64,000 nt of DNA from a virus (Duplodnaviria > Caudoviricetes): the IMG/VR virus record IMGVR_UViG_3300034073_003276; one strand, written 5' to 3'. Both the position numbers and the translations under genes were made by a program. Of this stretch, positions 7,205 through 46,796 are shown one piece after another; the stretch's first letter is position 1, and every line of letters begins with the position of its first letter. Below the pieces are notes generated by a model. It worked only from the letters and a program-made list of their open reading frames with translations. It did no database searches and was not told the DNA's origin.

Positions 7205-7263
7205 ATTATACGACAAAGGACACCTGATTTCAAGTGCCCTTGTTCCAGTTTAGAAAGTGTCCT
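7205..7263 (-). promoter_or_regulatory. early promoter/stem-loop cassette, copy 3
   Basis: GGACACTTTCTAAACTGGAACAAGGGCAC-TTGAAA(7233-7228)-17 nt-TATAAT(7210-7205). Confidence 0.85.
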
Positions 7264-8006
7264 TATGATATGCGTCTTCTATTATTTTTAGATGTATCTA
7301 TTCCTTTTCCTTTTTGATAAGAAACTACTCCAGCAGAAGTTGATACATAACCAGTCATACAACATTCCCATCTTTGTGAATTGGTAATTTTTACATTTTC
7401 TCTTCTTTCTTCGGTTGCCAGTCCATAAAGACCTACACGAAGTTCTTTTGCTCTTTGTGTTGCTTTTTTACCATCTTCACTCATTTGTTCTTTAGTTCTT
7501 CCGTGAACTCCAACACCAAGTTTATATGCGGTTAGTCCTCCATTTTTTGCATCTTCACTCATTTGTTCTTTAGTTCTTCCATGAATGCCCAATCCAAGTT
7601 CGTATGCTTTTTTTCCTCCACTTTTCCCATCTTTGGTCATTTGTTCTTTAGTCCTTGCGTGTCCTCCTATTCCAAGTTCATATGCTTTTCTTCCACCCTT
7701 TGAGCACAAATCAATAAAAACTTTACCACCAACATTTTCATTAAGACACCACTTATCGGTGTTATAAAATGGTTTTATTAATCTCTTTTCAACTTCCTGT
7801 GCTTCTATCCAACCTTCATCTGTGAAGTCAAAAAATTGAAGTATTTGCTTTTTAGGAGTATAAAATTTCCACATCCACTTATGGGTTACAGGAGTTCCCA
7901 TATAGTATTCATTAAACTTTTTTTCTTTATGAGCACCATAATAGTAATAAGAAACTTCTTCAAAGGTAATCTTATACAAGTATATTCTTGGACTTTGTGA
8001 AGTCAT
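7263..8006 (-). CDS. free-standing GIY-YIG-family homing endonuclease with C-terminal repeats
   Basis: N-terminal IYLYKIT...YYYYG motif (GIY-YIG-like); three (H)GRTKEQM(S/T)(E/K)DGK repeats. Confidence 0.65.
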   Translation of the reverse strand: MTSQSPRIYLYKITFEEVSYYYYGAHKEKKFNEYYMGTPVTHKWMWKFYTPKKQILQFFDFTDEGWIEAQEVEKRLIKPFYNTDKWCLNENVGGKVFIDLCSKGGRKAYELGIGGHARTKEQMTKDGKSGGKKAYELGLGIHGRTKEQMSEDAKNGGLTAYKLGVGVHGRTKEQMSEDGKKATQRAKELRVGLYGLATEERRENVKITNSQRWECCMTGYVSTSAGVVSYQKGKGIDTSKNNRRRIS

Positions 8007-8011
8007 AGTTC

Positions 8012-8110
8012 TGCCTTGTTGTGTGTCGTATTACTATTTATACAAGAAAAGGTGTCCGAAGACACCTAATCTCTGCTTCTGGTTACGACACACACAAGCA
8101 TTATTATTTA
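8012..8110 (-). promoter_or_regulatory. homing-endonuclease control module: TAAATA, antisense arm, UUCG terminator hairpin, TATAAATA, complementary arm over the RBS
   Basis: TAAATA 8110-8105; arm 8098-8084; hairpin AGGTGTC-TTCG-GACACCT 8067-8050; TATAAATA 8042-8035; complementary arm 8030-8015. Confidence 0.75.
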
Positions 8111-8389
8111 TGGTAGTTCTAACCTACAATTACCATTTACATCAAACACCACTTTGACTTCACATTCGTGAGTTGTGTGTGCTCTCCACATAGCATCTTT
8201 GAACTCTTCTGTTTCTTTCTCTGGATACTTGGCAACAAAATGACCATTCTCATCCATTTCATTACAATTCACATCACCAAGATAATGGAGATTGAGGAAA
8301 CGATTGAGTTGTTGCTTTTGTTCGTGGTTCAGTCGAATTCTTACAAATGTGATGAATTCGTTTGATACTGGGTATTCTTCGTTAGTCAT
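8108..8389 (-). CDS. hypothetical protein
   Basis: start trimmed to MTNEEY. Confidence 0.6.
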   Translation of the reverse strand: MTNEEYPVSNEFITFVRIRLNHEQKQQLNRFLNLHYLGDVNCNEMDENGHFVAKYPEKETEEFKDAMWRAHTTHECEVKVVFDVNGNCRLELP

Positions 8390-25727: not shown

Positions 25728-25801
25728 TACCCGCAGTCGGATTCGAACCGACACTGGAGGAGTTTTAAGCTCCCTATCTCTGCCTGTTGGATTATGCGGG
25801 C
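25728..25801 (-). tRNA. trnL: tRNA-Leu(TAA)
   Basis: acceptor GCCCGCA/TGCGGGT, anticodon arm GGGAG-CT TAA AA-CTCCT, T-arm GTCGG TTCGAAT CCGAC; short variable loop; no encoded CCA. Confidence 0.85.
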
Positions 25802-25805
25802 AAGG

Positions 25806-25879
25806 TGCAGGTTGTGGGGATCGAACCCACCTTAGGCGAATTATGAGTTCGCTGCTTTCAACCAGAGAGCTAAACCTGC
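25806..25879 (-). tRNA. tRNA with CAT anticodon (elongator Met or Ile2)
   Basis: acceptor GCAGGTT/AACCTGC, GCGAA-CT CAT AA-TTCGC, GTGGG TTCGATC CCCAC; G1-C72 pair argues against fMet. Confidence 0.85.
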
Positions 25880-34188: not shown

Positions 34189-35838
34189 TTACATCACCAC
34201 ATTGTAGTTAAGTTGTGAGTAGAGCACATAGAAATTATCAGTGTTTGAAGATGGTATAAATGGCACATCAGTTAAAGGTTCTTGTTGAGAAACCATTGTC
34301 TGGGTTCTATCTTTTCCACCACCTGCCATAATAATATTTGGTTTTGCTTCAGGTAAAGTGCCAACAGGTGTATTTGGTTTTGGCGGTGCTTGAATATCTG
34401 CAGCAGGTGCTTTTTCTTGAAGTAAACCTTCAAGATTTACTGTGCCATATGGAGGTGCTGTTTCTTGTGTTGGTGATTGTGCTGGACCTTGTAGCATATT
34501 TGCAGTATCTACCCCAAATGTCATTTCAGACATTGATGGTATTGCAGGTGTTTGTGGTTGTGATGGTGCTGCTACTTGTGCTGCTGGTGGTGCTGGAGTT
34601 GCTGCTGGTTGTGCGGATGGCTGTGCTGCTGTTGGTGTTGGTTGGTCTTCTTTTTTGCCAAAGAATGTGCCCTTTCCAAATCCAAATTCTCTTGCTACAT
34701 CCAATCCAGCAAATCCTAATCCAATACCAGGAATTGCAGATCCATAAGATAATAAACCACCAACAATGTCTCCTTGCGAAATTCTATAAGTTCCAACACC
34801 AATTGCCAATGGAGTAAGAATTTTAGAAGCAATACTACCAGTACCCTTTAAAAAACTCCGAGCGCCCTTTCCTATATTATTAACGCCTCCCAAAAATCTT
34901 GACATTGGACTACCTGCACCCAATACCTTTCCACCACTGGTAGTAATAGGTACTCTTCCACCGGGTCTTGTAATTGTTTTTGCTGCGTTAGCACCAAACC
35001 CAAGTAGTCTTCCAATTGCAGCACCTGCTAATCTAAACGGTGCCAGAGCGATTCTAGCAACAAAACTTGCCAACTTAAGAGTCAATCCAGTAATGGTTCT
35101 CATTAAGAGACCGAATCCTAGATTTACAGCAGCAAAAGCACCTATTGCAAATAATACATTCTTAATGACATTGTTTTTAATCTCTTCAAGTTTCTTAGTA
35201 TCACCTTCAGCAAGTGCTTTTAGGGTTTCAATCCCCTGATTTGTCAACCATCCAAAGAATAATGTCGTCAAGGCACCCATTATTCGGTCAAAAAGACTTG
35301 TAACCGTTTGCTGAAGTTTAGCAATCGGTCTCATTAATGCTGCTTGAATATTTTTCTCTAATTCACTTTCCTTCCCAAGACGAACTTTACGCTCTGCTAA
35401 TCTTCTTTCTGCTTCTTGTTCTTGTTTAAGTTGATTCTGCTCTAAAGCACTTTCTGCTTGAAGTTGTTTTGCAGTGTTTTGAATTCCTTGATTTAATTCA
35501 GTTACTTGTACGCGAATAACATCAAGACTCTGCTGAAGACCTCCAATTGATTGTGCGTTTGTTTGTATTTGTAATGTCTGTGCCCTATCTACTAAACTTG
35601 TTTGTGGTCTTACTACAATCGCAGATCCTGCAGCAACTGCTCCTCCGCCACCTGCTCCACCGCCAGCGGTACCACCCCCACCACCTGCTACTGTACGACC
35701 ACCAAAAACTGATCTTGGTAATGTAGTGATTCTACCAAGAGAAAATTTTTGTAGGGTAATTCTTTCCGAGCTGGTATAGTAACCACCACTTGGCTTTTCG
35801 CCTGTTTGTGCTCTTAAACCAGCTTCTGCCCTATCCAT
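34189..35838 (-). CDS. tape-measure-like / baseplate hub-associated protein
   Basis: 549 aa, coiled coil plus Ala/Gly-rich amphipathic segments; position downstream of gp51. Confidence 0.55.
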   Translation of the reverse strand: MDRAEAGLRAQTGEKPSGGYYTSSERITLQKFSLGRITTLPRSVFGGRTVAGGGGGTAGGGAGGGGAVAAGSAIVVRPQTSLVDRAQTLQIQTNAQSIGGLQQSLDVIRVQVTELNQGIQNTAKQLQAESALEQNQLKQEQEAERRLAERKVRLGKESELEKNIQAALMRPIAKLQQTVTSLFDRIMGALTTLFFGWLTNQGIETLKALAEGDTKKLEEIKNNVIKNVLFAIGAFAAVNLGFGLLMRTITGLTLKLASFVARIALAPFRLAGAAIGRLLGFGANAAKTITRPGGRVPITTSGGKVLGAGSPMSRFLGGVNNIGKGARSFLKGTGSIASKILTPLAIGVGTYRISQGDIVGGLLSYGSAIPGIGLGFAGLDVAREFGFGKGTFFGKKEDQPTPTAAQPSAQPAATPAPPAAQVAAPSQPQTPAIPSMSEMTFGVDTANMLQGPAQSPTQETAPPYGTVNLEGLLQEKAPAADIQAPPKPNTPVGTLPEAKPNIIMAGGGKDRTQTMVSQQEPLTDVPFIPSSNTDNFYVLYSQLNYNVVM

Positions 35839-35872
35839 TCGATTGATTCTTCAGGGTTTCTTCTTCAATATA
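35831..35872 (-). pseudogene. remnant of the original gp51 3' end (YIEEETLKNQSNG*)
   Basis: parallels the current gp51 end YIEEENLKNNQNS*; its stop overlaps the ATG of the next gene. Confidence 0.65.
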
Positions 35873-35886
35873 AGTTATTTATTTGA

Positions 35887-35985
35887 TAAATATGAATACC
35901 TGATCTGGTGGTTCTTTTCAGGTTGGGATAAAGCACCTTTGGGTGCTTTTCCTGTATAAATAGCAATAACCACCAGATTAGAGTA
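35887..35985 (+). promoter_or_regulatory. homing-endonuclease control module (second instance)
   Basis: TAAATA 35887-35892; arm 35901-35913; hairpin 35930-35949; TATAAATA 35955-35962; complementary arm 35968-35980. Confidence 0.75.
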
Positions 35986-35988
35986 ACA

Positions 35989-36618
35989 ATGAAAAATCTT
36001 AAAAGATTTTACACTTACGCATATTTGCGTGAAAACAAAACACCATATTATATTGGTAAAGGAAGTAATAATAGACTGCACAAAAGAAAAAAGAGTGATG
36101 TAAAGCCTCCAAAAGATAAATCTAGAATAATAATATTAAAACAAAATCTCACAGAAAAAGAAGCATTTAATCACGAAGAATATATGATTTATGTCTTTGG
36201 TAGAAAAGATTTAGGCACAGGTATTCTTCTTAATAAAACAAGCGGGGGCGAAGGATCAAGTGGTGCCATTCGTTCTTTAGAATTTAAATTAAATTTGAGT
36301 GAAATAAACAAAAATAAAATTCTCTCAAAGGAGCATAAAGAAAAAATAGGCAATGCACAGAAAGGAGAAAAAAATCATAATTATGGAAAATCTGCATCCA
36401 AAGAAACCAGAGAAAAAATGAGTAATGCACAATTAGGCGAAAAACATCCTAGGGCAAACTGGTGGAAACTTACTTTCTCAAATGGAAACACGATAGAAAT
36501 ATGTGGATTGCCTAGTTGGGCAAAGGAAAATAATTATAGTTGTGGAAATATTCATATGGTTTATCTAGGAAATAGAAAAAAACATAAAGACATTATAAAA
36601 GTTGAAAAAATAAGATAA
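35989..36618 (+). CDS. GIY-YIG homing endonuclease with NUMOD3-like repeats, inverted relative to its operon
   Basis: FYTYAYLRE..TPYYIGKG...R; LLNKTSGGEG; HKEKIGNAQKGEKN. Confidence 0.85.
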   Translation: MKNLKRFYTYAYLRENKTPYYIGKGSNNRLHKRKKSDVKPPKDKSRIIILKQNLTEKEAFNHEEYMIYVFGRKDLGTGILLNKTSGGEGSSGAIRSLEFKLNLSEINKNKILSKEHKEKIGNAQKGEKNHNYGKSASKETREKMSNAQLGEKHPRANWWKLTFSNGNTIEICGLPSWAKENNYSCGNIHMVYLGNRKKHKDIIKVEKIR

Positions 36619-36619
36619 T

Positions 36620-36793
36620 TTAAGAATTTTGATTATTTTTTAAGTTTTCCTCTTCAATATATTGTTGGAGAAGAGTAATGTAAACTTCCCTTTCCCAAGG
36701 TATAAGATTTTCTAGTTCAGTTAAAGACCATCGATGATGTTGTACAAGGGCAAAATTTGTCTTGTAATATGATGCAAGATCCTCATGCATCAT
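36620..36793 (-). CDS. gp51: baseplate hub assembly catalyst gp51 (57 aa), not in the ORF track
   Basis: MMHEDLASYYKTNFALVQHHRWSLTELENLIPWEREVY; follows gp26. Confidence 0.8.
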   Translation of the reverse strand: MMHEDLASYYKTNFALVQHHRWSLTELENLIPWEREVYITLLQQYIEEENLKNNQNS

Positions 36794-36795
36794 CG

Positions 36796-37515
36796 CTAGG
36801 CGAAAAAACTTGTTAGACCCTCCAAGACAACTTCACTTTCAACTCCAGTATTTGGATTCTTCACTTTAATTGTATGAGAAAGTTTTGGCATTGTTTCAAA
36901 AAACTTTTCAATGTCTTTGAATTGTTGAGAAGTGAGTTGCTCAAGAAATTCTTTCAATTCTTTTTTAGTCGAATCTGATGCTGCCCAAGATTCTTCTTCA
37001 CTATAAATCTGCTCAATACAAGAAATAATCATATCAAAAGTGTCATCAACAGAAATCTCTTCTCCAACTACAAAGTTACTCTTCACAAACTCTTGCATTG
37101 ATGGATATCTCATTCTCAGAGTTAGATTATCATCAAGTTTAATATCTCTCGAATGCTCCTTATCAAATTCAACTTGAATATCGTCTAAGTTGATACTCAT
37201 AGGAACTTGTGTAGTGCCATCATCAGGGCAGGTAATTAAAATATCAACCGACTCTCCAACAGATTTTCCTCGAATATTCAGAAACAAATATTCAATATCA
37301 AAGGTTGCAAGTTTCTCAACCTTGATTCCACGACTGATAATACAATTTCCAATTACATTCTTAACAGCTTCGGCAATTTGCTTTGGATCTTCACTTTCCA
37401 TCGCAATAATTAGAATTTTCTCCTCCTTCACAAGAAATGGACGATACTTAATGCTCTTTTTCAGTGAAGGAATTTCCAACTCATATGTTGGTGTAGATAT
37501 TTTTGGTAAAGGCAT
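36796..37515 (-). CDS. gp26: baseplate hub subunit gp26
   Basis: MPLPKI.TPTYEL..PS...IKYRPFLVKEEKIL; DIEYLFLNIRGKSVGE. Confidence 0.9.
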   Translation of the reverse strand: MPLPKISTPTYELEIPSLKKSIKYRPFLVKEEKILIIAMESEDPKQIAEAVKNVIGNCIISRGIKVEKLATFDIEYLFLNIRGKSVGESVDILITCPDDGTTQVPMSINLDDIQVEFDKEHSRDIKLDDNLTLRMRYPSMQEFVKSNFVVGEEISVDDTFDMIISCIEQIYSEEESWAASDSTKKELKEFLEQLTSQQFKDIEKFFETMPKLSHTIKVKNPNTGVESEVVLEGLTSFFA

Positions 37516-37545
37516 AATGACCTATAGAATTTCAGTTAAAATTAT

Positions 37546-38391
37546 TTAGAAGAGAGTTTCGGGGTTTGCTTGCGTAGATAATGGATTTGCTGATAAAGAT
37601 TCTGATGCAGTCTGAATTGTTTGATTAGTTTGCGTGCCAAAGGTGAAAGTTTCCTGAGATGCTCTGTAAACATCTTCTGCAGACTGTGGAGCGGATGGTG
37701 TATTTTGTGGTTGTAGAGGATTAAGATTATTGTTGTTTCCATTAAAGATATTGAATGAATTTGCCTTTCCAACAATGTATCTGTCATACTGGAAAGAAGC
37801 AGACACTTTCATAACATCGGATGCCATGTAAGAAACTGGAATAGAACTTATATTCAGAGGAAATAGTCCTCTGAAGTTGTATTCAATCTCTCTTCTATAA
37901 TCTCTATCAAACTTAACAATGGATACAGCATCTGCTTTGTAATATTTGGGATATTGCATCCTTACAAAATACCCATCTACATTTTGGTTGATTGGAGGAT
38001 TTTCTCCAGTAAGAGGTGTATTAGGATTACGATAAAAAGATCCACTTGCAATGAATTCCATCCAACACTCTAAGAAATTAAGCATTTGATAATCACTATC
38101 AACATAAAAATCTAGAGTGATTTCTGAATAAATTCTAGAGTTTGCAAACTTCTCCTGAACACCCATAAAGTTTCCATCAACCGTGAAAGAACCTAATGTA
38201 GTTGTTGGAAGAACAGCAGAATAGCAGAGAAGACCTGCACTTTCAGCAATAAATCTAGAGTTAATACCTTTATTACGGAGATATGACATTAACTGTGGTG
38301 GCAGAGTACCAAACTTCACCTCATAGTGAGAAGTTTGTGCCAGATTGGTCATCAATGGCTTAATATCAGATATTCTGCGGGGTGTTGCCAC
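37546..38391 (-). CDS. tail tube initiator gp54 / gp19-like protein
   Basis: LLC.SA.LP...F...R.YS.I.L.FYVD; P.NI..I..SY; divergent from gp4. Confidence 0.6.
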   Translation of the reverse strand: MATPRRISDIKPLMTNLAQTSHYEVKFGTLPPQLMSYLRNKGINSRFIAESAGLLCYSAVLPTTTLGSFTVDGNFMGVQEKFANSRIYSEITLDFYVDSDYQMLNFLECWMEFIASGSFYRNPNTPLTGENPPINQNVDGYFVRMQYPKYYKADAVSIVKFDRDYRREIEYNFRGLFPLNISSIPVSYMASDVMKVSASFQYDRYIVGKANSFNIFNGNNNNLNPLQPQNTPSAPQSAEDVYRASQETFTFGTQTNQTIQTASESLSANPLSTQANPETLF

Positions 38392-38393
38392 TC

Positions 38394-38432
38394 TAAATAC
38401 CTTATACGACTGTTTATATTATTAAGTATTTA
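38394..38432. promoter_or_regulatory. divergent pair of late promoters
   Basis: CTAAATAC on the + strand near 38393 and on the - strand near 38432. Confidence 0.6.
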
Positions 38433-38433
38433 G

Positions 38434-38871
38434 ATGTCATATAAAGGTAAATATAAACCATCATATCCAGAAAAATATAATGGTGACCCAACTAATATCA
38501 TCTATAGATCATTGTGGGAAAGAAAGTTTTGTGTATATTGCGACACCAACGAAAAAATAATTGAATGGTCATCTGAGGAAAAATGTATCCCTTATCGATC
38601 ACCTTTAGATGGGAGAATTCACAGATACTTTCCAGACTTTCTTATCAAGGTTAAAGAGTCTGATGGAAGCATCAAAAAATATATGATTGAGATTAAACCA
38701 TCGAAGCAAACTGTCCCTCCTACTAAACCAAAGAGGCAAACACAAAAATATATTGCTGAGGTCTATGAGTATGCTAAAAATCAATCAAAGTGGGAAGCAG
38801 CAAGAGAATGGTGTGCTGATAGAGGTTATGAGTTTAAAGTAATCACCGAGCACGAGTTAGGGATTAAGTAA
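38434..38871 (+). CDS. gp4: head completion protein gp4
   Basis: YKGKYKP..P.KY.GD..NIIYRSLWE; RYFPDF; EIKP. Confidence 0.92.
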   Translation: MSYKGKYKPSYPEKYNGDPTNIIYRSLWERKFCVYCDTNEKIIEWSSEEKCIPYRSPLDGRIHRYFPDFLIKVKESDGSIKKYMIEIKPSKQTVPPTKPKRQTQKYIAEVYEYAKNQSKWEAAREWCADRGYEFKVITEHELGIK

Positions 38872-39245
38872 TGCCAAGAAAAACTCTTCAACAAAGACAA
38901 AGAAGTCGCCTTGCTGGTCTTGTAAAAAAGTTTATTGGTACTGAAGATGCTGATGATACAATGATTGAAATTATGAATGTATTGACTGAATCTCCATTAC
39001 CTCCAGTAGCAGGAAAGTATTATGTTTTTGTTTACAATGCAAAAACTCCAAACATAAATTATGACCAAAATCCTTTTGTCTATGTGAAAAAAGTTTATAA
39101 CTGGGGATTTACTGGATTAAATTATCATTGGGGGAAAGATAGACAGTATACTTGGGATGAAATCGCGGGTAAGTTATATGAAATTTATCCATCCGAAATT
39201 GAAGACTTAAAAAGATTATCTTTCGGCAATGTCAGGACTAAATAG
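38871..39245 (+). CDS. DNA end protector gp2-like protein
   Basis: GKYYVF.YNAKT...YDQNP...GF.GLNYHW; adjacent to gp4. Confidence 0.55.
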   Translation: MPRKTLQQRQRSRLAGLVKKFIGTEDADDTMIEIMNVLTESPLPPVAGKYYVFVYNAKTPNINYDQNPFVYVKKVYNWGFTGLNYHWGKDRQYTWDEIAGKLYEIYPSEIEDLKRLSFGNVRTK

Positions 39246-39260
39246 TTCAAAAAAAAATAA

Positions 39261-40172
39261 ATGGCACCCACATTCAGGTATCCACAAAAAAGATTAGAAA
39301 ATAATACCGACTATGTGAAAATTGATGCTTATGAATATCGCCCTCCAGGTGTTGGGCAATTAAGTTCTACCAATTTTGTAGTACCAACTTCAGATACATA
39401 TTATCAATCTATAGGTCAAAAAGATATACGAGGTAGTGTTATTCTTCCAATTCCACAATCTTTACCAGTCAATTCACAATCTGCAGGATGGGGTTCTGGT
39501 GGTATGAGTGGTATAATAGCTGCTGGGGTAGGCGTTGCACAGGAAACAATAAAAGCGGGAAATTCATTTCAAGGTTTTGGTCAAGGAGTATCTGCTTTTA
39601 TTAAAAAAGTAACATCTTCGGCACAGACTGGATTGGGACAAAAAGCAATTCAAGATTTTTTTGCAACGAAAGCAGTTGAGCAGTTACTTGGAACCGATCC
39701 AAACTTATTTGGAGAACTTCTATCAAGAGATACTGGAGCAGTGATTAATGAAAATATTGAGTTACTTTTTAGAGGAGTAAGCTTGAGAGAGCCTTTTTCT
39801 TTAGCATTTGATTTATCACCAAGAGATGCTGATGAGGGAAGAGTAATTAAAGATTTGGCATATTTCTTAAAAAAGGAAATGTCACCAAGAAAAGGAACTA
39901 CATCAGGTGCTGCAGGAGGATTATTCTTAACTGCCCCAAGTGTTTTTAAAATTCAATATATGAGTGGTGGAAAACCCCACCCATATCTAAATAAGTACAA
40001 AATATGTGCCCTTCAAAATTTGGGATTAAACTTTACAGGTTCTAATACCTATGCAACTTATTCTGACGGCACACCCGTTCATATGCAGTTGACCTTACAA
40101 TTCCAAGAATTGACTCCAATTTACGCGGAAGATTACAACAGCACAGAAGGAGCAACAGGAGTCGGATACTAA
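39261..40172 (+). CDS. gp48: baseplate tail-tube cap gp48
   Basis: N.NIELLF.GV.LR.F.L.F...PR...E; FL.AP.VF.I.Y; C.L....NFT...Y.TY.DG.P....L.FQEL. Confidence 0.88.
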   Translation: MAPTFRYPQKRLENNTDYVKIDAYEYRPPGVGQLSSTNFVVPTSDTYYQSIGQKDIRGSVILPIPQSLPVNSQSAGWGSGGMSGIIAAGVGVAQETIKAGNSFQGFGQGVSAFIKKVTSSAQTGLGQKAIQDFFATKAVEQLLGTDPNLFGELLSRDTGAVINENIELLFRGVSLREPFSLAFDLSPRDADEGRVIKDLAYFLKKEMSPRKGTTSGAAGGLFLTAPSVFKIQYMSGGKPHPYLNKYKICALQNLGLNFTGSNTYATYSDGTPVHMQLTLQFQELTPIYAEDYNSTEGATGVGY

Positions 40173-40864
40173 TGACTTACTTCAGAGAACTACCCAACTT
40201 AGAATATCAGTCATTCCTATCAGATTCTAATTCATCTGATCAGTATTTGATTGTCAAGAATCTTTTCCGTAGAGTCAAACTGCGTGATGACTTACAAAAT
40301 GTTTTTACTGTCTTTGACAAATATCAAATTCCAGATGGGTCTAGACCAGAATTAGTTGCTCAAGAACTTTATGGTAGCACTCAATATGATTGGGTAGTCA
40401 TCGTATCTGCAGGAATCACAAGACTCAGAGACCAATGGCCACTTTCCGATAAGCAAGTTTATGATTATGCAGAGTCAATTTATGGAAATAATTTGAATGC
40501 GATTCATCATTACGAAACTACAGAAGTCAGAGACTCAGAAGATAGATTAATTCTTCCTGCTGGTCAAGTTGTAGATGCAGACTTTAAGGTTTCTTACTAT
40601 GATGATGGCACTCTTTATACAAATGATGCAACAAGATTAGGAGATGATGTGATTCGTATTCCAGATCCTATAGTAGGAGTGAGTAATTATGAGTATGAAG
40701 TGAGAAAGAATAATGATAAGAGAGGTATCTATGTATTAAAACCAAGATACCTACAGCAAGTTATTAATGACACAAGAAAAGCGATGATTTATGATAGGTC
40801 ATCGCAGTATGTAAATGATACTCTAATTAAAACTGAGAATACTAAATCAACTATTCCATTTTAA
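40172..40864 (+). CDS. gp53: baseplate wedge protein gp53
   Basis: YF..LP...Y; G.RPE.VA..LYG...YDWVV; IHHYET. Confidence 0.9.
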   Translation: MTYFRELPNLEYQSFLSDSNSSDQYLIVKNLFRRVKLRDDLQNVFTVFDKYQIPDGSRPELVAQELYGSTQYDWVVIVSAGITRLRDQWPLSDKQVYDYAESIYGNNLNAIHHYETTEVRDSEDRLILPAGQVVDADFKVSYYDDGTLYTNDATRLGDDVIRIPDPIVGVSNYEYEVRKNNDKRGIYVLKPRYLQQVINDTRKAMIYDRSSQYVNDTLIKTENTKSTIPF

Positions 40865-41440
40865 TTCTAGATTCTTATCAAAAACTATCACATAACGGTG
40901 CTTGCGGGAGCGTTCTTTCCATTCTCCCTCAGCACCTTTTACTTTTCCACGAGAGTGCTTAGTTCCGTCTGAATAGTAGAAATCTTTTTTTGGATCTGTG
41001 AGACCCATATACTTAAAGTTACAAGCGCGATAGATTGTGCCAGAATGAAAATCACTATCAGCGTAAGAGATAATTGCCTTAACTTCAGTATCTTTTCGTA
41101 ACTGTCTAATCGCTTTTGAAACAAACCAAGAAGTGATATTATACTCGCTCTGTTGAGTTTGTGGATGAATGCAGAGTCGTGAAAGTTCGAATAATCCTTG
41201 TTGTTCATTTCTCTCTAATCCAAAGGCACCTTTTGCGATTTCAGGAACAGGAAGTCCAGTGAAAATACAGACCCCAACAGGACCTCCAATATTTAACACA
41301 TCTGTAAAAGATTTTTTATATAAAGAATAATTATATCCACTTTTGAAATCTTTTGATATGTCTTTTAGATAATGGTAATTATACAATAATTCTTTTATTT
41401 CTGATTTGGGAACCCTTTGAATATAATAATCACTTTTCAT
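40847..41440 (-). CDS. Mom-like DNA modification protein (GNAT fold)
   Basis: ELSRLC, ISYAD...H.GTIY.A.NF.Y.G motifs of the Mu Mom family; start trimmed to MKSDYY. Confidence 0.7.
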   Translation of the reverse strand: MKSDYYIQRVPKSEIKELLYNYHYLKDISKDFKSGYNYSLYKKSFTDVLNIGGPVGVCIFTGLPVPEIAKGAFGLERNEQQGLFELSRLCIHPQTQQSEYNITSWFVSKAIRQLRKDTEVKAIISYADSDFHSGTIYRACNFKYMGLTDPKKDFYYSDGTKHSRGKVKGAEGEWKERSRKHRYVIVFDKNLELKWNS

Positions 41441-42101
41441 AAAAAACACTATACTTGTAAATATAATATTTTGATCTACCAGTCATTTTTACAGCATCTT
41501 TTATGCAATCATATACTACGCCATTATAGCATAGTTTTCTCGCTCTTGGATTTTTACCTCCCATTATATCTGAATTTTGAATACCCTTATTCCAAGGTTT
41601 TCTTCCCTTACAAGAATCACTTATTTTTTTCCTAACTTCTGGTCTTTTAGTTGGATTTTTATCTCCAACTAATTTTCCTCTTGCTCTTAAACCTTTTTCT
41701 ATATCTGACTGTCTTCTTTTTTCAGTAATAGTCTTTGGAGTTCCTCTATTTGCTTCTGCAATTTTTCTTTTATGAGATTCTGATAAAGGTTTTCCAAGTC
41801 TTGCTTTTCTTCTATTTTCAATATCCTTTTCAGTCATTATTTTTCCAGAACATCCATCCCCACCATTAGTTTTATTATGAAGAATTCCAGTTCCTAGATC
41901 TTTTCTGCCAAACACAGCAATCATATAGATTTCGTGATTAAATGCTTGTTCCTCTGTAAGATTTCTTTTTAAAAATAAAATTCTTTCCTTTGATGGTGGA
42001 TAAAAACTTCCGTGTTTTAAAAATGCTCTTCTACCCTTTCCCTTACCAATATAATAGGGTGTCCCATCTTCACGCAAATATGCGTAAGTATAATAGTCCA
42101 T
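41430..42101 (-). CDS. GIY-YIG homing endonuclease with NUMOD3-like repeats
   Basis: YYTYAYLREDGTPYYIGKG; HNKTNGGDG; LSESHKRKI. Confidence 0.85.
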   Translation of the reverse strand: MDYYTYAYLREDGTPYYIGKGKGRRAFLKHGSFYPPSKERILFLKRNLTEEQAFNHEIYMIAVFGRKDLGTGILHNKTNGGDGCSGKIMTEKDIENRRKARLGKPLSESHKRKIAEANRGTPKTITEKRRQSDIEKGLRARGKLVGDKNPTKRPEVRKKISDSCKGRKPWNKGIQNSDIMGGKNPRARKLCYNGVVYDCIKDAVKMTGRSKYYIYKYSVFYEK

Positions 42102-42102
42102 C

Positions 42103-42200
42103 TGCTTCTAAATTAAGGTCGCAATAGTATTTATAATAAAATAGGGTGGATTTCTCCACCCTTCTCTAAAAGTGCGACCTTGTTAGAGCATTAGTATTTA
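42103..42200 (-). promoter_or_regulatory. homing-endonuclease control module (third instance)
   Basis: TAAATA 42200-42195; arm 42181-42173; GAAA hairpin 42162-42143; TATAAATA 42135-42128; complementary arm 42123-42115. Confidence 0.75.
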
Positions 42201-42204
42201 GACA

Positions 42205-43137
42205 TCAATCATCAGATGCTAATTTTGCGAAATACGAAAGCGCATCATCGTCCTCATCTTCTTCTGCCGCAGGAGCAGCAGCGCGGCGAGTTGGTTTCAG
42301 ATTGCTGATTTCCTCACGAAGGTCATCAGTCAACTCACGGGAAGACCCACGAGTATATTCTTCCTCTTCACCTTCTTCGACATCAAGACGCACATTTGCT
42401 TTCGATCCAAGCACAGAATGAAGACGTGCTTTCAGTTCTTCATAAGTCTTGAATTGATCGGGAGAAACAAATTCAGCAAGAGAATACTGCTTCTTCCAGA
42501 TTGCTTCCAGAGCATCATCATCATCCAGCAAAGCACTCTGAGGAGCAAACTCACTGGAATCATAGTTACGATAACCAGCAACATTCTTTGCCTTCAGTTT
42601 GAAGTTGGCGCCTTGCCAGAAGTCAAACGGATCGATTGCTTCTTCATCTTCAAACTCAGGTTGCATTGCAGCAGTCAGTTTGTCAAAGATCTTCTTACCA
42701 TACTTGAAGAGGAAGACTTTACCTTCATTTTCAGGATTGGCAGGATCTTTTACCACATAGATGTTGGAAACATAAGTCAGTTTGCGCTTCTGCTTACGTG
42801 CAACCTCTTTACCAGCATCAGTGCCGTTATTCCAGAGACCAGAGTTGTGCTCACATACAGGGCACTTTTGATTCATAGTCGTCAGGCAGGTGTCAATCAA
42901 CCAACCACCAGGACCTTGGAATGCGTGACTATAAACCTTCACAAAAGGAATGTCTTCACCATCAGGGGCAGGCAGAAAACGGATTACGGCATATCCATTA
43001 CCGCTTTTATCTACGTCCATTTTCCACAGACGATCATCGGAAGGACTTCCAATAGTATTCATTTTTTCTACTTCTTTCACCAGTTTTGCGGTGAGAGAAC
43101 CAAGTTTAGATTGTTTTTTAAGGTCGGAAAAACCCAT
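42205..43137 (-). CDS. gp32: single-stranded DNA-binding protein gp32
   Basis: D.RLWK..VDKSGNGYAVIRFLP; HAFQGPGGW; CPVC; acidic tail LSYFAKLA. Confidence 0.95.
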   Translation of the reverse strand: MGFSDLKKQSKLGSLTAKLVKEVEKMNTIGSPSDDRLWKMDVDKSGNGYAVIRFLPAPDGEDIPFVKVYSHAFQGPGGWLIDTCLTTMNQKCPVCEHNSGLWNNGTDAGKEVARKQKRKLTYVSNIYVVKDPANPENEGKVFLFKYGKKIFDKLTAAMQPEFEDEEAIDPFDFWQGANFKLKAKNVAGYRNYDSSEFAPQSALLDDDDALEAIWKKQYSLAEFVSPDQFKTYEELKARLHSVLGSKANVRLDVEEGEEEEYTRGSSRELTDDLREEISNLKPTRRAAAPAAEEDEDDDALSYFAKLASDD

Positions 43138-43183
43138 TTGGATACCTCGGATAAATTGGATTCGGGGGATTACTCGGATAGTA

Positions 43184-43212
43184 TAACAGGGATTCCCTCA
43201 ACCGTCAATGTA
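43184..43212 (-). promoter_or_regulatory. sigma70-type promoter for gp32
   Basis: TTGACG-17 nt-TATACT. Confidence 0.7.
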
Positions 43213-43530
43213 TTGTTTGAGGGATTGGATAGTCTTGGTCATACTATTGAATAAGATTTGCATATCAGTCTCTGGTGGGAAACCCATCAGTGCGACTGAT
43301 TTGCGTAGGTTATCTTTCATCTCAACCGCTTTAGGGTCGTCTGAAAGGGACAACCTAGTATACATCACTCTTTGCTTTTCTAGCAAGGATTCAAGTTTTT
43401 CAATATGCTCCAGTTTGGTTTCACGGTCCATCATACCAAAAGTCAAAAGACTTCCGTAGATACTTTCTTGTAACTGATTGATTTCTTTCAGTTCATCTTG
43501 AATAATATCGGAGTCAAAAAAGTTACTCAT
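43198..43530 (-). CDS. DUF1825-like cyanobacterial/cyanophage protein
   Basis: FF.SDIIQ.E; EKQR.MYTRLSLSDDP. Confidence 0.7.
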   Translation of the reverse strand: MSNFFDSDIIQDELKEINQLQESIYGSLLTFGMMDRETKLEHIEKLESLLEKQRVMYTRLSLSDDPKAVEMKDNLRKSVALMGFPPETDMQILFNSMTKTIQSLKQYIDG

Positions 43531-46085: not shown

Positions 46086-46796
46086 TTATACCACATACTT
46101 CCAAACATATCCTTTATGTTTTTTCCTTTTATTTTGACAAACTAAAGTTATTTTGGAAGTTGAGGCGTTATTTTTTTCTGCGGCAATGGTCATACTATCA
46201 TAAACTTCAATTAAATTTCCATTAGTATCATATTTTCCTATTTTTTTAATTTTATGAGAGGTTCTTTTATATGAAGATATTTTTGATAGTGGTTGATTTT
46301 CAAAAGTTTTCCATTGAAACCCACCACAAGTTTGATATTCTCCTCTTATCACGGCACCAATGCCTTTACAATCTTTACCAAAAACATCATAAGAAGCATC
46401 TCTACAACTTTCATAAACATTGACTAGATTTCCATCCAAATCATAACAAGCAACTTTTTTAGAATTGCTTTGTTTAATTGCTTGTTTCCATCTATCCCCG
46501 TGCTTTTTATTGAGAAATCCACCACCGTCGCCTCCATTAGTCATATTATAATATGGTTTCAAAAGAGAGACATAATACATTTCTCTTTCATTTACTTTAT
46601 TTTCAAAACACTCTTCTATAATTTCAAATACAAAATTTTCAACACCATACTTTCTCATAGCATAATATAATTTTGTATTTCTTACTTTTGAATGAGATTT
46701 ATGCTGTCTCCATCTTACTTTTGGTCTTTTGGATTTACCAATATAAATCTGCTCATTAAGAATATTTGTTATTTTGTAAATGTAGTGTGAAACCAT
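46086..46796 (-). CDS. GIY-YIG homing endonuclease with NUMOD1-like domains
   Basis: YIYKITN...YIGKS; YNMTNGGDG; two YD..GNL..VY.S repeats; TATAAATA at 46828-46821. Confidence 0.85.
   Translation of the reverse strand: MVSHYIYKITNILNEQIYIGKSKRPKVRWRQHKSHSKVRNTKLYYAMRKYGVENFVFEIIEECFENKVNEREMYYVSLLKPYYNMTNGGDGGGFLNKKHGDRWKQAIKQSNSKKVACYDLDGNLVNVYESCRDASYDVFGKDCKGIGAVIRGEYQTCGGFQWKTFENQPLSKISSYKRTSHKIKKIGKYDTNGNLIEVYDSMTIAAEKNNASTSKITLVCQNKRKKHKGYVWKYVV

Follow-up and report, generated by a model that had tools for sequence, protein, structure and literature searches.

In the T4-like cyanophage genome analysed here, a homing-endonuclease-like gene is preceded by two late-type promoter boxes, with complementary segments downstream of each box and a terminator-like hairpin in between. 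The question raised by this locus is whether the upstream box and the terminator belong to the expression control of the nuclease gene and, if so, whether they give rise to a short RNA directed against its leader. The latter had been proposed in an initial annotation made from the sequence alone, which also reported the same geometry with unrelated sequence at two further sites. The window, i.e. the whole stretch of DNA that was analysed (64,000 nucleotides), corresponds to minus-strand sequence of a viral contig of 89 kb from IMG/VR (IMGVR_UViG_3300034073_003276). The closest cultured relative of the phage is the freshwater Synechococcus phage S-SRM01 (family Kyanoviridae). Six cassettes of this kind were found on the whole contig, three inside and three outside the window.

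Every part described for the first site could be located. On the minus strand, the upstream box P1 (CATAAATA, a late-type promoter box by motif and comparison) lies at 8105-8112, and the TAA within it (8110-8108) is the stop codon of an upstream 99-aa ORF. It is followed by arm A (8083-8099), assigned by its fold and its complementarity to arm A', and by an intrinsic-terminator-like hairpin with U tract (8044-8067), which was flagged by the terminator scan and comprises a stem-loop (8067-8050, 7 bp, UUCG loop) and a U tract reaching to about 8044. Further downstream are the T4-consensus late promoter P2 (TATAAATA, 8035-8042, assigned by motif match) and arm A' (8012-8030), complementary to arm A and representing the 5' leader of the putative P2 mRNA including AAGG. 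The 121-nt region folds with -37.5 kcal/mol (z = -5.2), with arm A pairing to arm A' around the terminator. The RNA predicted to arise from P1 would be ~55 nt long (8044-8099, minus strand, from ~6 nt past P1 to the U tract) and folds as a 5' hairpin bearing arm A (8099-8075) followed by the terminator hairpin. The gene behind the cassette (7263-8006, minus strand, ATG at 8006) encodes a 247-aa protein with a GIY-YIG-like N-terminus and repeated DNA-binding modules. It matches PHROG 314 (phrog_314, 'homing endonuclease'), while no match was obtained for it in Pfam or PDB sequence searches. Rfam gave nothing meaningful at 7950-8160 (E up to 5); across the window, only two tRNAs reach the gathering score, encoded by two adjoining genes at 25728-25879 (minus strand; 53 and 50 bits). 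Just past nuclease 1 (7205-7262, minus strand), a long stem (AAGGACAC ... GTGTCCTT) is followed by TTGAAA-17-TATAAT before the next gene. With 11 of 12 sigma-70 matches, the latter belongs to an early-type 'stem-loop plus promoter' unit; such units had been seen earlier at several places in the nuclease 1 region.

The two other cassettes in the window have the same order of parts (P1, arm A, terminator hairpin, P2, arm A', ATG of a homing-endonuclease gene). Cassette 2 (35885-35983, plus strand) contains P1 GATAAATA (35885-35892), arm A (35899-35913), the hairpin (35930-35949), P2 (35955-35962) and arm A' (35968-35982), and folds with -39.5 kcal/mol (z = -5.7). Cassette 3 (42103-42202, minus strand) contains P1 TCTAAATA (42202-42195), arm A (42189-42173), the terminator (42162-42143), P2 (42135-42128) and arm A' (42123-42103), and folds with -38.7 kcal/mol (z = -6.1). 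Both are located in front of GIY-YIG/NUMOD3 endonuclease genes, namely gene 2 (35989-36618, plus strand, 209 aa), which is inverted relative to both neighbouring genes, and gene 3 (41430-42101, minus strand, 223 aa), which is inserted after gp32. The tblastn matches of the downstream genes are annotated as Seg-like or intron-associated endonucleases. The geometry reported by the initial annotation was recovered at all three sites, with unrelated arms, and its view that homing-endonuclease genes are preceded here by a late promoter within a hairpin that masks the leader agrees with the phrog_314 (gene 1) and NUMOD3 (genes 2 and 3) assignments. The embedded terminator described there is conserved and was flagged by the scan for two of the three cassettes (1 and 3). 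The hairpin of cassette 2 failed the T-tail rule, the T run lying partly within the stem, and is therefore the weakest terminator of the three. The ORF overlapping the end of nuclease gene 3 (40847-41449, minus strand) is a member of the Mom family of proteins (E = 1e-21 to Pfam PF25680). In P-SSM2, S-SKS1 and S-SRM01, gp32 directly neighbours the baseplate gene gp53; here, nuclease gene 3 and this ORF are inserted between the two.

Homing endonucleases need to be expressed enough to spread, but too little to harm the phage, and the solution found in T4 is a mask of the ribosome-binding site combined with a nested late promoter. A hairpin hides the ribosome site in transcripts arriving from upstream, while the late promoter inside it gives an mRNA without the 5' arm; examples are I-TevI, I-TevII, I-TevIII, segB and mobE of Aeromonas phage Aeh1 (PMC2988022). 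The cyanophage cassette resembles the T4-type mask in the homing-endonuclease gene, the hairpin hiding the ribosome site and the TATAAATA late promoter inside this hairpin. It differs by an additional terminator in the loop, a P1 box 3-5 nt before the 5' arm and a covarying 5' hairpin, and in being a sequence-conserved unit common to unrelated nuclease families.

Pairing of the two arms was analysed by per-sequence folding and with an alignment (A3) of a subclade of 23 cassettes. These were used in place of a broad MAFFT alignment, on which RNAalifold recovered the outer stem alone because the arms are out of register. In the subclade alignment, 98% of the cells of the outer helix are paired (slid controls, 33-56%), and 7 of 15 pairs have changed on both sides. 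The complementarity of arm A to the leader including the ribosome site amounts to 17-19 bp at about -22.7 kcal/mol. For 45 distinct arm pairs, the cognate duplexes had a mean of -22.7 +/- 1.8 kcal/mol compared to -9.2 +/- 4.1 kcal/mol for non-cognate combinations; the cognate arm A' was the best partner for 37 of the 45 arms and within the top three for all of them. According to the mechanism proposed here, the intrinsic terminator would halt transcription arriving from upstream. In RNA reading through it, arm A would fold onto arm A' and hide the leader and the ribosome site as in the T4-type mask, whereas the late mRNA initiated at P2 would have the beginning of arm A' as its 5' end, lack arm A and be translatable. 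For this cis part, comprising the terminator, the mask and a P2 giving unmasked late mRNA, structure and covariation together with the T4 paradigm (PMC2988022) make a strong case, and it is very likely correct.

The distribution of the cassette was determined in relatives of nucleases 1 and 3 fetched from IMG/VR. A descriptor scan (two TAAATA boxes 50-100 nt apart, with complementary segments downstream of each) covering 677 kb of fetched DNA and the whole contig gave 83 distinct cassettes, or 91 under a slightly different key. A motif search of this kind in cyanophages had been suggested as a check in the initial annotation. The 91 cassettes stem from IMG/VR cyanophage contigs, the isolates S-SRM01 and B3, and the six copies in this genome. 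A nuclease-like ORF is located directly 3' of all cassettes but one, for which ORF detection failed, and at least five unrelated N-terminal nuclease families were found behind the cassette. Among 65 unique endonuclease leaders having a proximal TAAATA, 56 carry a second one 61-90 nt upstream. An exact search with one 33-nt sequence spanning terminator and P2, blind to upstream and downstream sequence, retrieved 28 loci (24 unique). The ORFs behind them fall into three unrelated families (the nuclease-1 family, HNH and classical GIY-YIG), and identical arms recur on different contigs and before unrelated nuclease genes. S-SRM01 encodes a homologous nuclease (55% identity) behind the same module with compensatory arm changes; the DNA similarity is lost about 7 nt ahead of P1, and the genes located further upstream are unrelated between the two phages. 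Judged by these sequence comparisons, the element is a ~105-nt portable expression-control cassette moving with free-standing homing-endonuclease genes of T4-like cyanophages. Flanking TAAATA repeats were considered as possible insertion sites and rejected, as the 3' end of cassette 1 has none.

TAAATA is common in an AT-rich genome, and related cassettes share ancestry, so the upstream box requires separate consideration. On both strands of the window, the hexamer was found 63 times (83 expected), corresponding to about 5e-4 per position. P1, by comparison, keeps a constant position 3-5 nt ahead of arm A in virtually all cassettes, which is far beyond chance. In the 24 unique loci fetched by terminator and P2 alone, all six positions of the P1 hexamer are 100% conserved (24/24), while positions -12 to -1 are conserved to at most 83%, mostly near 50%, and the arm positions vary. 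Position -1 of P1 is A or C in 90 of the 91 cassettes (consensus N[A/C]TAAATA). P2 is TATAAATA in 86 of the 91, placed 4-5 nt before arm A', and both boxes have the context TAAATA-N-T-A-R/W-T-G-C in common. The late-promoter consensus of cyanophages is NATAAATA (PMC2984593). In the phage studied here, the boxes 13-40 nt before large structural genes (TCTAAATA, AATAAATA, CATAAATA and GATAAATA) are P1 variants, and box variants of this structural-gene type occur 40 times on the gene strand of the contig versus 7 times on the other strand. TATAAATA occurs 11 times on the whole contig, 8 of them in nuclease cassettes; since the structural genes use other variants, the cassettes carry a 'more T4-like' promoter than the host phage. 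The upstream box, at first noted as promoter-like, gained in strength by its conservation and by the match of its consensus to the structural-gene late promoters of the phage. On this comparative evidence, neither P1 nor the embedded terminator is a chance occurrence; both belong to the conserved components of the module. No TAAATA is present at the 3' ends of the gp32 alleles without homing-endonuclease gene in S-SRM01, P-SSM2 and S-SKS1, where the gene ends in TGA. P1 therefore comes in with the cassette, and its interpretation as a captured resident late promoter was ruled out. A leader peptide starting from an RTG after P1 was rejected as well; the ORF is missing in 23 of the 91 cassettes and otherwise has 2-40 codons (only 2 in 13 cassettes).

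The classic cis model already explains the arms, and the cassette might be nothing but a mask of the T4 I-TevI/segB/mobE type with an added terminator as insulator. Arm A would then act only in read-through transcripts, the 5' hairpin would merely shield arm A until arm A' is made, and the P1 box would not be a promoter of a small RNA, but would be kept as the 5' edge of the cassette, e.g. for supplying stop codons to the gene in front of it or as microhomology for insertion. Such a mask with nested late promoter is established for endonucleases of the T4 family (PMC2988022) and has been seen in cyanophage-like loci (PMC2677866), and the full-length fold does pair arm A with arm A'. In line with a cis-only role, no solo units of P1, hairpin and terminator without P2 and nuclease gene were found in the 677 kb. 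Furthermore, 65 of the 80 cassettes with enough upstream sequence are located behind a same-strand gene, and in 34 of these 65 the P1 box contains the stop codon of that gene (offset 0 or +4), so that part of the P1 conservation could serve another purpose such as stop-codon supply. However, none of the six P1 bases varies even in cassettes with an upstream stop codon located 3-78 nt before the box, which stop-codon supply cannot explain. Position -1 of P1 obeys the promoter consensus, and the spacing of P1 to the base of the 5' hairpin is fixed (3-5 nt). Complete cassettes also persist without a same-strand upstream gene: six of the 80, including instance 2, are located behind a divergent gene and have the complete module without a co-directional operon to supply arm A by read-through. 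Taken together, a cis-only mask with insulator is considered rather unlikely.

The features of the RNA predicted between P1 and the terminator would fit an active P1. Terminator hairpins in 69 cassettes have stems of 6-9 bp and loops of 4-7 nt. The putative P1-to-terminator RNAs (49-61 nt) all fold as a 5' hairpin plus the terminator hairpin; in the former, a short stretch immediately preceding the terminator is base-paired to the 5' part of arm A, leaving the rest of the arm in the loop. Of the 5' hairpin, 69 distinct versions were counted, all of which start at the predicted 5' end and whose helix occurs in more than 25 variants. In the subclade alignment, its helix is paired in 95% of the cells, and 3 of 6 pairs are compensatory. 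Since this helix competes with the pairing of the two arms, it can be of importance only where arm A' is missing from the RNA, as is the case after termination. The complementarity of the arms, as calculated with RNAduplex, begins about 5 nt past both boxes, at the expected start sites; T4-type late transcripts start at about this distance past the promoter box. Conservation, geometry and the 5' hairpin together suggest that P1 probably makes a terminated RNA. P1 would most likely fire late, because it has the same form as the structural-gene late promoters of the phage, and would give a two-hairpin RNA of 49-61 nt ending at the terminator. Two poly(A) metatranscriptome contig sets, covering 6% of sampled words and uninformative on transcript ends, gave no cover of either cassette in the region 35000-43500.

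With P1 active, the short RNA might still be a by-product of control at the DNA level. Polymerase that has started at P1 and stalls or terminates 5-10 nt before P2 would occlude the latter promoter and thereby tune late nuclease transcription by transcriptional interference. The geometry would fit, as in most cassettes no more than about 2-10 nt separate the end of the U tract from TATAAATA and the spacing between P1 and P2 is narrow (mostly 65-75 nt in the 91 cassettes). Neither the covarying 5' hairpin nor the start of the complementarity exactly at both predicted start sites is explained by occlusion, which is regarded as improbable.

The preferred reading is that the first 17-19 nt of the short P1 RNA would pair in trans with the 5' end and the ribosome site of the P2 mRNA, and that this pairing would damp nuclease synthesis or set its threshold. 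According to cofolding, binding of the short RNA in trans to the leader of the late mRNA would be favourable by -8.7 to -13.4 kcal/mol after opening of the 5' hairpin. The whole sequence of events, from terminator and mask via the P2 mRNA and the P1 RNA to trans pairing, is the best explanation at hand and is given a probability of roughly one half. That the short RNA regulates in trans is, in view of conservation, geometry and the 5' hairpin, close to evenly balanced, with a slight tilt against it. The most far-reaching version falls a little short of even odds and is tentative: P1 would drive a real ~55-nt late RNA, which pairs in trans with the nuclease mRNA made 70 bp downstream, within a portable 'sRNA plus matched leader' cassette whose arm pairs are orthogonal and evolve by compensatory change. 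Strong pairing was calculated for 5 of 60 non-cognate pairs within contigs, compared to 6% between contigs, in a test of low power. Co-resident cassettes were thus no more orthogonal than random pairs in this low-power comparison, i.e. a possible signature of trans action is absent.

The P1 RNA could also have a target other than its own leader, either host RNAs or, during co-infection, the leaders of related incoming cassettes, by which nuclease elements would compete with each other or confer immunity. The occurrence of identical arms on different contigs and before unrelated nuclease genes would suit this idea, as would the roughly 6% of non-cognate pairs that are still strong. The preference for the cognate partner in 37 of 45 cases argues against it, and the RNA module was never found without its own P2 and arm A'; a non-self target is therefore judged very improbable.

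Short structured RNAs pairing with the 5' end or ribosome site of an mRNA are known from IS10 (RNA-OUT/RNA-IN), IS200 and IstR-1/tisB. IS200 joins a terminator against outside transcription with a hairpin at the ribosome-binding site and a small RNA, and IstR-1/tisB is a type I toxin-antitoxin pair with a non-overlapping small RNA. If the short RNA is real, the cassette would share with IS10 and IS200 that a selfish element limits its own protein by a short RNA. In contrast to these elements and to type I toxin-antitoxin systems, the predicted antisense sequence is encoded in tandem upstream on the same strand, as an inverted repeat, and the regulated protein is a nuclease of 200-250 aa instead of a small membrane toxin. 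The designation 'type-I-TA-like' in the initial annotation holds as a functional likeness and by analogy only, given the 209-247-aa nuclease products in the window and the same-strand tandem RNA.

A cyanophage non-coding RNA tied to a homing-endonuclease gene has been described in S-PM2, where CfrI, a ~225-nt antisense RNA, links psbA and F-CphI (Millard et al. 2010, as cited in PMC2984593 and PMC12197685). CfrI differs from the RNA predicted here in being a true opposite-strand antisense RNA, and it is the only RNA listed for cyanophage endonucleases in a 2025 review of phage small RNAs. The F-CphI leader of S-PM2 (L096, 680-745) contains TATAAT, a UUCG terminator hairpin and TATAAATA, while complementary arms are absent. 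Late promoters with a terminator within tens of bases, giving a discrete regulatory small RNA, are represented by PR'-tR' and StxS of lambda and Stx phages, where they serve antitermination control and the RNA acts on mRNAs of the host (PMC7547250). The cyanophage cassette, on the other hand, has no antiterminator, and the target would be the leader of the adjacent gene itself.

The closest earlier description is that of Dassa et al. 2009 (PMC2677866), who reported hairpins for 15 out of 16 endonuclease leaders, with TATAAATA present in 10, together with two mutually complementary conserved motifs. The leaders belong to 'fractured gene' loci of marine and freshwater metagenomes and precede GIY-YIG as well as other nuclease types. 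This element is very probably the cyanophage cassette or its sister. In that paper, the hairpin is read as a cis translational element only, the word terminator has no occurrence and no upstream promoter is described. What the initial annotation had regarded as different from known systems stands for P1 and the terminator, but hairpins with TATAAATA and complementary motifs were already contained in that study. The review on T4-family endonucleases (PMC2988022) mentions no loop terminator, second promoter box, 5'-arm hairpin or multi-family cassette. In the searchable literature, the conserved P1, the terminator within the loop, the 5' hairpin and the use of one cassette for unrelated nucleases thus appear to be undescribed, as is the case for the reviews and Dassa et al., and Rfam has no matching family.

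As this cassette shows, cyanophages package the T4-type solution as a mobile unit with a terminator and a second promoter, which is reused for at least five nuclease families. For genome annotation, the cassette provides a clean signature of endonuclease cassettes and their 5' borders. The short RNA, if it exists, would constitute the first family of promoter-to-terminator small RNAs tied to homing endonucleases, and a new, widespread family of phage-encoded regulatory RNAs located in tandem with their target and sharing its strand. The matched RNA pairs, of which nature offers dozens, would then be available as a ready-made set of orthogonal riboregulators. Its existence could easily be tested, since the cultured phages S-SRM01 and B3 carry the cassette.

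A fourth homing-endonuclease gene in the window (46086-46796, minus strand, 236 aa; GIY-YIG, NUMOD1 and I-HmuI-like NUMOD domains) has only TATAAATA (46828-46821) in front, with no upstream box, arms or terminator; the full cassette is therefore not obligatory. In three different contexts (L011, L015 and L022), P1 is directly preceded, ~10 nt upstream, by ATGACTT, the seven bases with which the ORF of the nuclease-1 family begins. It looks as if a cassette had been inserted at the beginning of an older copy. A second type of cassette is represented by about 28 examples (L077, L084-L092, L129-L228), counted after filtering of the raw matches, which were mostly due to chance given the loose search pattern. 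Here, arm A is located apically in a conserved hairpin (GGGCAGCAAC ... GTTGTGTAAGTCCC), directly followed by (T)ATAAATA and an arm A' ending at the ATG. A -10-like TATAAT or GATAAT is often present just before the hairpin. Some of the examples of this second type precede small non-nuclease ORFs and a DUF1825-like gene.
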